Source of the DNA: a virus
Lineage: Duplodnaviria; Heunggongvirae; Uroviricota; Caudoviricetes
Virus record (IMG/VR): IMGVR_UViG_2648501110_000019
Direction: 5' to 3' (one strand)
Length of the DNA: 4,271 bases
Below, one piece after another: positions 1,600 to 1,721 of the stretch. Each line of letters begins with the position of its first letter. The stretch's first letter is position 1. The notes under the pieces are model-generated. The model saw only the letters and a list, made by a program, of their open reading frames with translations. It did no database searches and was not told the origin of the DNA. Both the position numbers and the translations under genes were made by a program.

Positions 1600-1671
1600 C
1601 CTCTTCCCCATAAAAACGTACTACTTCCCTAGTACACATGAGGAGTTGGGTCAGTTGGTTGCCAACCTGAA

Positions 1672-1721
1672 CAGGCACCTTTAAGCCTGCTTCTGTTCGG
1701 GTACCTTTAAACCCGAAACAG
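1672..1721. repeat. Two tandem stem-loops with identical 8-nt loop ACCTTTAA and different stems
   Basis: Hairpin 1: CAGGC(1672-1676) ACCTTTAA(1677-1684) GCCTG(1685-1689). Hairpin 2: CTGTTCGGGT(1693-1702) ACCTTTAA(1703-1710) ACCCGAAACAG(1711-1721), about 10 bp with one bulge. Hairpin 2 spans the stop codon (1707-1709) of the 102-aa minus-strand ORF. GAACAG (1669-1674) can alternatively pair with CTGTTC (1693-1698). Confidence 0.6.

Follow-up and report, generated by a model that had tools for sequence, protein, structure and literature searches.

Tandem hairpins with an invariant loop in the early-right leader of lambda-like phages carrying a helicase-primase replication module

The early-right region and its hairpins

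The window analysed here, a 4,271-nucleotide (nt) stretch of DNA from a Caudoviricetes record of IMG/VR (IMGVR_UViG_2648501110_000019), holds two adjacent hairpins with the same 8-nt loop at the downstream end of ORF102, an open reading frame (ORF) in the early-right operon of a lambda-like prophage. Positions 1416-4174 of the window are 99.7% identical to the immunity region of such a prophage in Escherichia coli E110019, with a cI gene and, divergent from it, a cro-like gene that is overlapped at its end by ORF102 (Table 1). The early-right promoter, pR, was predicted on the near-identical (99.7%) locus L001 and then mapped to the window, and a consensus scan revealed it as the sole promoter-like site upstream of the hairpins on the same strand. 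Minus-strand sequence is therefore the content of the cro-operon RNA.

In intact relatives, namely the E110019 prophage, phages Fostie, YP3 and ENT39118, and prophages of UMNK88 and O121, ORF102 is followed by ~430 nt devoid of a conserved reading frame (the leader) and then by the genes for an SF2 helicase, a Toprim primase and Q, with a 285-amino-acid ORF sometimes present between the latter two. The helicase is of the DEAD/DEAH SF2 type and belongs to the RadD/UvsW/RecG/PriA-like group, not to the ring-shaped replicative helicases, while the primase carries a zinc ribbon of the T7/P4 type. A replication unit of this kind has been named Eru1 in Shiga-toxin (Stx) phages, in a paper that reports no origin for it (PMC8044961).

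The window departs from this arrangement. Its similarity to intact prophages and phages ends at 1416, and positions 1-1420 match DNA located between the lysis and terminase genes of other prophages, including DUF3950 and TonB-like genes that adjoin the terminase genes there. Early-right leader thus lies to the right of the junction and late-region prophage DNA to its left, and this evidently reflects an internal deletion in the window prophage that removed the end of the leader along with the helicase, primase, Q and lysis genes. The hairpins lie ~250 nt inside the truncated leader, to the right of the junction, and they are a stranded remnant because the genes downstream have been deleted. 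A preliminary description of the locus had placed them at the end of the cro operon, where the prophage gene content stops. Neither statement survived the comparison, since intact relatives run on through the leader into helicase, primase and Q, and DNA beyond the break, ~250 nt to the left of the hairpins, is still late-region prophage DNA. The whole window was not found in one piece in any complete E. coli genome of the collection.

The octamer ACCTTTAA occurs on the plus strand exactly twice in the 4,271 bases, compared with a chance expectation of ~0.17 occurrences (two or more copies in 1 of 200 shuffles), and each copy is the loop of a hairpin, as had been noticed previously. Hairpin A comprises a 7-pair inner stem, one bulged U and three outer pairs; its core CGGGU/ACCCG was retained by RNAalifold in 83 sequences, and it scored 34.5 bits with a covariance model whose training set includes hairpin A itself. 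Hairpin B forms 7 pairs on the minus strand, one of them G.U, instead of the 5 listed formerly, and in Cronobacter phage ENT39118 its closing pair is U-A in place of C-G. Minus-strand RNA forms both hairpins in its minimum-free-energy fold and in its centroid fold, and the best fold of the plus strand comes without hairpin B; the 96 nt tested give a modest thermodynamic signal (z = -2.1). The two stems had been called entirely different, which is too strong: stem pairs 3, 5 and 6, counted from the outermost inward (C-G, G-C, G-C), are common to both, and it is the other four pairs that differ, with compensation. Collectively, these data confirm the hairpin observation as far from chance, but its real signal owes less to the window than to the more than 100 related loci in which the unit is conserved, described below.

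Further features had been reported around the pair. The imperfect palindrome GGTTG-C-CAACC is present and folds in minus-strand RNA as hairpin C; its pairing is less conserved (92.5% of cells pair, two pairs being broken in 8/82 and 23/82 sequences), and RNAalifold did not retain it. The complementarity between GAACAG and CTGTTC is likewise found in the sequence, but the mutually exclusive folds deduced from it do not hold, as the competing segment exists in the window-type lineage only; the Fostie-type lineage uses GAACAG to lengthen the 5' arm of the very same hairpin. As reported, the ORF102 stop codon, TAA at 1707-1709, falls in the loop of hairpin A, but this overlap is not conserved. Most ORF102 homologues are 97 amino acids long and end at a TGA 15 nt upstream, where the window has TCA (1722-1724) and reads on. 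The loop stop codon was thus rejected as a functional feature, and the TTGAAGGT loop variant is uninformative in this regard. No likeness to attachment sites or transposon ends, also proposed for comparison, was seen.

Table 1. Coordinates of the early-right and immunity features in the window.
Feature	Position	Strand	Description
Junction	1416-1420		Deletion or recombination junction
Hairpin E	1485-1507	-	GC-clamped: GGGCG, A-rich loop (...AAAAAAA...), CGCCC
GATC box	1518-1538		Two GATC (Dam) sites 17 bp apart around TTAAGTA, GATCCATTGGTTAAGTAGATC on the minus strand; conserved
G-tract	1556-1609	-	Purine- and G-rich tract GGGGAAGAGGGUAAGGGGGGUAAGGGGGGAUUGGGUGUUGGGGCAGGAAUAGGG (GGGGAAGAGGGAAAGGGGGGUAAGGGGGG onward); most deeply conserved part of the block
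Hairpin D	1618-1635	-	GUACUA-GGGAAG-UAGUAC, then GUUUUUAU; stem in all relatives, including Fels-1 and L436 types
Hairpin C	1653-1667	-	GGUUGG-CAA-CCAACU; imperfect palindrome of the preliminary description
Hairpin B	1670-1691	-	AACAGGC/GCCTGCT; minus strand AGCAGGC-UUAAAGGU-GCCUGUU; loop 1677-1684; formerly hairpin 1
Hairpin A	1693-1721	-	CTGTTCGGGT/ACCCGAAACAG; minus strand CUGUUUCGGGU-UUAAAGGU-ACCCGAACAG; loop 1703-1710; formerly hairpin 2
ORF102	1707-2015	-	PHROG family phrog_852; overlaps the cro-like gene
cro-like gene	1978-2265	-	Repressor with YdaS-type helix-turn-helix; first gene of the early-right operon, divergent from cI
pR	2288-2316	-	Predicted early-right promoter: TTGAAT, 17 nt, TATTAT, extended -10 TG
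cI gene	2385-3077	+	LexA-type

Conservation and covariation of the hairpin unit

A search for further copies of the loop motif flanked by inverted repeats, as the preliminary description had advised, uncovered hairpin units in more than 100 related prophage and phage loci of Escherichia, Enterobacter, Citrobacter, Cronobacter, Yersinia and Salmonella, at a single site per genome, where they travel with the replication module ('Eru1-like'). Of 5426 complete E. coli genomes, 44 contain the block that includes the hairpins, and so do four phage records, ~100 IMG/VR contigs, further metagenome contigs and 12 of the 16 GTDB species-representative genomes that carry the helicase, these 12 spanning Enterobacter, Citrobacter, Pseudocitrobacter, Trabulsiella, Superficieibacter and Pseudescherichia; phages Fostie, YP3 and ENT39118 are among the carriers. 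Each locus holds one, two or three units, with a loop-to-loop distance of 26 nt in most loci (range 24-27), at a fixed position 5-9 nt after the usual TGA stop of ORF102. A covariance model and a pattern scan both failed to find the unit at any other place in two complete phage genomes, those of Fostie and ENT39118, or along 27 kb of the E110019 prophage. The model was also negative in Stx phage PA8 and in Morganella, Pectobacterium and Salmonella relatives, which are more distant but retain the other parts of the module. Of 83 unique sequences, 76 have exactly UUAAAGGU as loop A and 77 have it as loop B, and most variants of either alter only the last base.

Conservation extends over the whole leader. 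When phages of E. coli, Yersinia and Cronobacter that differ in cI and cro are compared, nucleotide identity amounts to 88-93% in the leader, compared with 77-81% in the helicase gene, 70-76% in the primase gene and 63-70% in ORF102. This difference argues that the non-coding leader is under stronger constraint than the genes around it.

We then compared 16 units in detail. On the cro-operon strand, loop positions 1-7 (UUAAAGG) are invariant in all of them, and five of the seven stem pairs change on both sides in a compensating manner. Cells that pair make up 91.1% of this set but 72.4% of its shuffles, and the covariation score, 0.62, falls to 0.25 on shuffling, neither value being reached in 500 shuffles, counts that are indicative only because the units are a hand-picked mixture of paralogues and orthologues and are not independent. 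Sliding the partner by one to three columns lowered pairing to 20-50%. Indeed, the same loop is carried by stems CGGGU/ACCCG, CAGGC/GCCUG, CCGGGC/GCCCGG and CUGAC/GUCAG. Fels-1-type loci have a single unit with the stem ACCGGGC/GCCCGGU, and in divergent metagenome loci a unit with ACCGGGC/GCCUGGU precedes one with GCAG(U)CUGAC/GUCAGCUGC or CUGGC/GUCAG, the units at one locus numbering three. Among orthologues alone, 95.9% of cells pair, compared with 32-51% when the partners are slid. The combination of an invariant loop with compensating stem changes argues that a hairpin, rather than a duplex repeat, is the recognised feature. Both hairpins are best explained as copies of one recognition unit with the minus-strand consensus 5'-NNCNGNY-UUAAAGGU-RNCNGNN-3', in line with the earlier proposal that the loop is conserved and presumably recognised while the stems need only pair.

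Wider scans added few relatives. A scan of viral contigs for TTAAAGGT-N12-30-TTAAAGGT returned nearly exclusively chance matches in AT-rich phages, plus three further members of the family, and a locus search of viral contigs driven by protein alignments yielded only close relatives (at least 86% identity) and no added diversity. Scanning metagenomes with the hairpin consensus gave mostly unrelated single matches, the informative divergent loci being L397, L428, L436 and L446. Many of the other single metagenome matches share a recurring, apparently coding context (QueA is suspected, as a guess only). Separately, an unrelated environmental element of ~20 copies (loci L332, L345, L350, L358, L380, L388 and ~15 more) carries a CAGGTTTAAAGGTGCCTG hairpin in the conserved context ...ttacact-hairpin-agcttgtaatggatgccggctgtagggataacagatgg.... 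As unrelated elements carry the motif, a bare match to it is not evidence of homology. A literature search with the loop sequence retrieved only primers and unrelated matches.

The remainder of the leader and ORF102

Several other parts of the leader are conserved. The G-tract hardly varies between genera, and a recognisable version of it persists in Stx phage PA8 and in Morganella, Pectobacterium, Symbiopectobacterium and Salmonella relatives without the hairpins. It holds at least four G-runs (GGGG-AAGA-GGG-UAA-GGGGGG-UAA-GGGGGG...) and could form a G-quadruplex or a stable R-loop. At the GATC box, distant relatives retain GATC...TTAAAG/TAAAGG/TAACAG...GATC, a faint echo of the hairpin loop. 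The leader also contains CUUUUCCAACAG, downstream of the hairpins. Hairpin E shows a compensating change to GGGCA/UGCCC in Fels-1 and further variants in loci L117 and L121-L123. The U-run that follows hairpin D is not conserved, reading ATTTCTAT, CTTCAAT and TTTCGGT in loci L121, L117 and L122, so that hairpin D is no dependable terminator.

The leader of intact relatives holds further hairpins. One of them, GGCUGG...CCAGCC, is conserved and precedes a 19-codon upstream ORF, MKTTSQNYYLISTGAAQWS (~11871-11930 of L001, minus strand), which is absent from the window and conserved in relatives including Fels-1; its stop codon overlaps the helicase start codon (ATGGAGCTGA), an arrangement that suggests translational coupling. 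Two other candidate features were rejected. A glycine-rich ORF of 56 or 43 amino acids over the G-tract (1508-1678, minus strand) has neither a conserved start codon nor a conserved frame. RNAalifold also suggested, with one seemingly compensatory pair, that CU[G/C]AUUGU immediately 5' of hairpin A could reach over a long range to ACAAU(G)[C/G]AG, located where the helicase gene starts; a tally of 95 unique leaders found C with G in 31/33 and G with C in only 42/62, uneven counts that speak for an apparent linkage by lineage, not for compensation.

ORF102 always lies directly upstream of the non-coding block. Its C-terminal half contains an invariant arginine-rich helix, EPVS[FY]RKENRARHEANTRLRLFVRN (residues 52-80, window 1776-1862), and nucleotide similarity between phages with different immunity regions starts at this helix, in the middle of ORF102, which places a mosaic boundary inside the gene. 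Profile searches against PDB, NCBIfam and PADLOC gave no match, and no database assigns a function to the protein. Its constant adjacency to the block and the arginine-rich helix that forms its invariant core make ORF102 a candidate partner of the hairpins.

In the immunity region itself, operator-like inverted repeats were noted between cro and cI (TTATCGGAAAGCCGATAA, 2333-2352) and at 3128-3143 (AATCGATAAACCGATT), the latter preceding a TTGACA downstream of the cI terminator; these are probably repressor-binding sites for pR/pRM and for a pL-like promoter. The terminator, a strong intrinsic one located 3' of cI (3083-3121), consists of GCCCACUCUUAAGUGGGC followed by U8 and gave the only Rfam matches of the window, weak and all sub-threshold.

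Possible roles of the hairpins

Wobble pairs bear on the strand that is active. Pair 77/97 of alignment A2 is G.U in 51 sequences, A-U in 29 and G-C in 1, and pairs 46/74 and 101/115 behave in the same way. These common wobbles are G.U on the minus strand and would be A.C mismatches on the plus strand. Folding and covariation likewise revealed a hairpin-forming potential of the minus strand, which is therefore indicated as the active one, be it as RNA or as single-stranded DNA.

Our preferred reading, to which we assign a probability of about 0.4, sees in the hairpins sites of the nascent pR transcript that are recognised by a factor controlling the leader or an origin downstream. We infer that RNA, rather than single-stranded DNA, is the active form and that a trans-acting factor binds it. 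As transcription from pR leaves ORF102, the nascent RNA would fold into one to three hairpins, each of which would present its UUAAAGG loop, ~26 nt from the next, to a sequence-specific factor; the arginine-rich ORF102 protein, a replication protein and a host protein are candidates. Binding of this factor would then decide the fate of transcription at the downstream G-rich tract and GATC box, the outcome being either read-through that expresses helicase, primase and Q or use of the transcript at a transcription-dependent origin. By analogy, a transcript this G-rich entering a replication module suggests such an origin, for which ColE1, the R-loop-primed replication origins of phage T4 and mitochondrial CSB II are analogues. 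A narrower version, in which ORF102 binds the UUAAAGG hairpins of its own transcript and gates the G-rich R-loop as a primer or loading site for helicase and primase, strikes us as quite improbable.

Two known systems resemble this scheme in part. In ColE1, the RNA II pre-primer has stem-loops at its 5' end and, after them, a G-rich segment whose hybrid with the DNA persists at the origin, and here too stem-loops with defined loops lie upstream of a G-rich transcript stretch that enters the replication region; in contrast to ColE1, however, no equivalent of the antisense promoter or RNA I is predicted, a consensus scan (a weak test) having found no plus-strand promoter-like site within the leader, and the replication proteins are phage-encoded. 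The translational operator of phage T4 gene 43 is a short stem with an 8-nt loop that is bound by the phage DNA polymerase, that is, the geometry of the present hairpins, read sequence-specifically in the regulation of a replication gene. Whereas that operator overlaps the ribosome-binding site of the gene it regulates, the hairpins described here are in tandem and ~400 nt upstream of the helicase start.

Several observations weigh against recognition on RNA, besides the mutual dependence of the 16 compared units. Orthologues alone show no significant covariation, with one pair changed on both sides and a score that did not exceed that of the shuffles, because their sequences are too similar. 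When tallied by distinct variant types, the wobble bias is weak (~18 G.U against ~11 A.C types, not significant), and G.T wobbles are tolerated in DNA hairpins too, so that single-stranded DNA of the same strand fits equally well. The structure model of ORF102 is poor (pLDDT 59). Moreover, Stx phage PA8 and relatives in Morganella, Pectobacterium and Salmonella keep ORF102, the G-tract and the GATC box without the hairpins, which makes the hairpins accessory and rules out that the arginine-rich motif of ORF102 serves them alone. The core of the block consists of the G-tract and the GATC box, the hairpins being a clade-specific addition at its 5' edge.

The strongest of the other explanations, which we hold unlikely but a serious contender, is that the hairpins act as single-stranded DNA at a phage origin, the ~430-nt block being the origin of the helicase-primase module. 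Unwinding or R-loop formation would then expose minus-strand hairpins whose TTAAAGG loops load or prime the SF2 helicase or the primase, in the manner of single-strand initiation (ssi) signals. The block is the only large conserved non-coding DNA beside the replication genes and is more conserved than they are, and no origin has been described for this type of module (PMC8044961). It combines features reminiscent of origins, namely a paired GATC, an A-run with a GC hairpin, several inverted repeats and a strongly strand-asymmetric G-tract; helicases of this SF2 type act on branched or R-loop DNA, the primase has its T7/P4-type zinc ribbon, and compensating stems with same-strand wobbles fit DNA hairpins as well. 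The origin hairpins of phage G4 and ssiA and ssiB of RSF1010 are such signals, and, as here, hairpins of this class lie beside dedicated primase and helicase genes. However, established paired ssi signals such as the two of RSF1010 are on opposite strands, whereas all copies of the present unit are on one strand. The same helicase-primase family also occurs in relatives that lack the hairpins, which can therefore not be an essential loading site, and the G.U-type wobbles of over half the sequences would destabilise short stems of DNA more than those of RNA.

More doubtful is a passive role of the RNA structure, with no binding factor devoted to it. The hairpins might cause pausing, block 3' exonucleases, mark a site of processing or insulate the G-rich leader against pairing with RNA upstream, and the identity of the loops would be a by-product of recent duplication. 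The position fixed after the usual TGA and the copy number of one to three would suit it, and a short stem with an 8-nt loop is the classical geometry of a pause hairpin, as in the his leader pause. Yet a passive structure needs no particular loop, and UUAAAGG is kept on unrelated stems (CUGAC, CAGGC, CGGGU) and persists where helicase genes have diverged by more than 20% in nucleotide sequence; for termination, a U-tract is missing.

A still less probable explanation invokes iterons, that is, a protein reading GGYTTAAAGGTRCC in duplex DNA, with the dyad either incidental or due to a dimeric binder. Direct repeats with a core identical at 12 of 14 positions, phased by ~26 base pairs (bp) beside replication genes, are compatible with this, as is the TTAAG/TTAAAG-like core between the two GATC sites of distant relatives. 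When set against the features of iterons, the units are one to three direct repeats with a conserved core of 7-8 bp, and their flanks covary as stems; the CUGAC/GUCAG stems break the GGY...RCC flanks and nevertheless stay complementary, which only a hairpin would need. The asymmetric central 8-mer also misfits a symmetric dimer site, and one to three copies spaced by 24-27 bp are loose for iterons.

The position of the hairpins in the first non-coding stretch downstream of pR and cro calls to mind the antitermination sites of lambdoid phages. Like boxB of lambda nut, they are short hairpins in the early-right transcript past cro whose loop matters while the stem only pairs, and an arginine-rich helix, here encoded nearby in ORF102, recalls the arginine-rich motif of N that binds boxB. 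Lambda boxB, however, has a 5-bp stem and a 5-nt GNRA-like loop, as opposed to the 8-nt UUAAAGGU of all units, and the nut hairpin is preceded on its 5' side by a conserved boxA (CGCUCUUUA-like) that has no conserved counterpart here: the boxA-like CGCUCCUCA of the window, inside the coding end of ORF102, reads CGCGUUCCUGA, CGCGAUCCUGA or other forms in relatives. Lambda has both nutL and nutR, whereas the present element occupies one site per genome in one to three tandem copies and is linked to replication genes. None of the four window ORFs tested, which cover part of the pL operon and include the gene that comes first after the putative pL, matched an N-family Pfam profile.

The put site of HK022, ~70 nt with two long irregular stem-loops and a triplex (PMC9378689), is a further point of comparison. 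This cis-acting antiterminator likewise consists of two adjacent stem-loops in a nascent early transcript, in a phage of the same subfamily, Hendrixvirinae, and requires no dedicated protein to be encoded; unlike it, the present stems are short and regular, vary from one to three in number and have no copy at pL. By eye, no sequence similarity to the HK022 putR region was seen, and with neither resemblance nor a second copy, identification of the hairpins as HK022 put was rejected. No intrinsic terminator was called at the hairpins on the minus strand, and no U-tract follows hairpin A or B; the sole call there was for hairpin 1 read on the plus strand, with a weak T-rich tail. Despite the location, the two stem-loops shared with HK022 put (PMC9378689), the boxA-like CGCUCCUCA upstream of hairpin A and the U5 after hairpin D, a nut-like, put-like or tR1-type terminator element of the early-right operon is thus the least probable of these readings and largely refuted by tests of class membership, as no second copy exists near pL or elsewhere in complete phage genomes and it is the replication module that the element accompanies, rather than the immunity and pL region.

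Other known RNA elements offered no match. Rfam contains nothing similar to the element at E values up to 10 for the window, nor up to 1 for the Fels-1, L436 and PA8 loci. Sites for CsrA/RsmA, whose consensus is a GGA in the loop of short, often paired hairpins, were considered and rejected, since the loops carry AGGU and never GGA. Finally, ssi signals differ from the present units not only in strand but also in that the latter are absent from relatives with the same enzymes.

For the window itself the message is a smaller one, as its replication, Q and lysis genes are lost and the hairpins are a leftover. Phages that use an SF2 helicase and a Toprim primase instead of lambda O and P include prophages of pathogenic E. 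coli, and the same type of module is found in some Shiga-toxin phages. The paper that defines the module types describes no origin or cis-regulatory site for them (PMC8044961), and the hairpins are an undescribed cis element of this poorly understood replication module. Any search for the origin, or for the control of replication-gene and Q expression, would naturally begin with the block, and a unit in one to three copies whose loop is invariant while its stems are free to vary is an easy target for mutation and binding experiments. If binding of ORF102 to its own transcript did gate the G-rich R-loop, the helicase-primase ('Eru1-like') module of lambda-like phages would have a transcription-coupled, RNA-gated replication origin.

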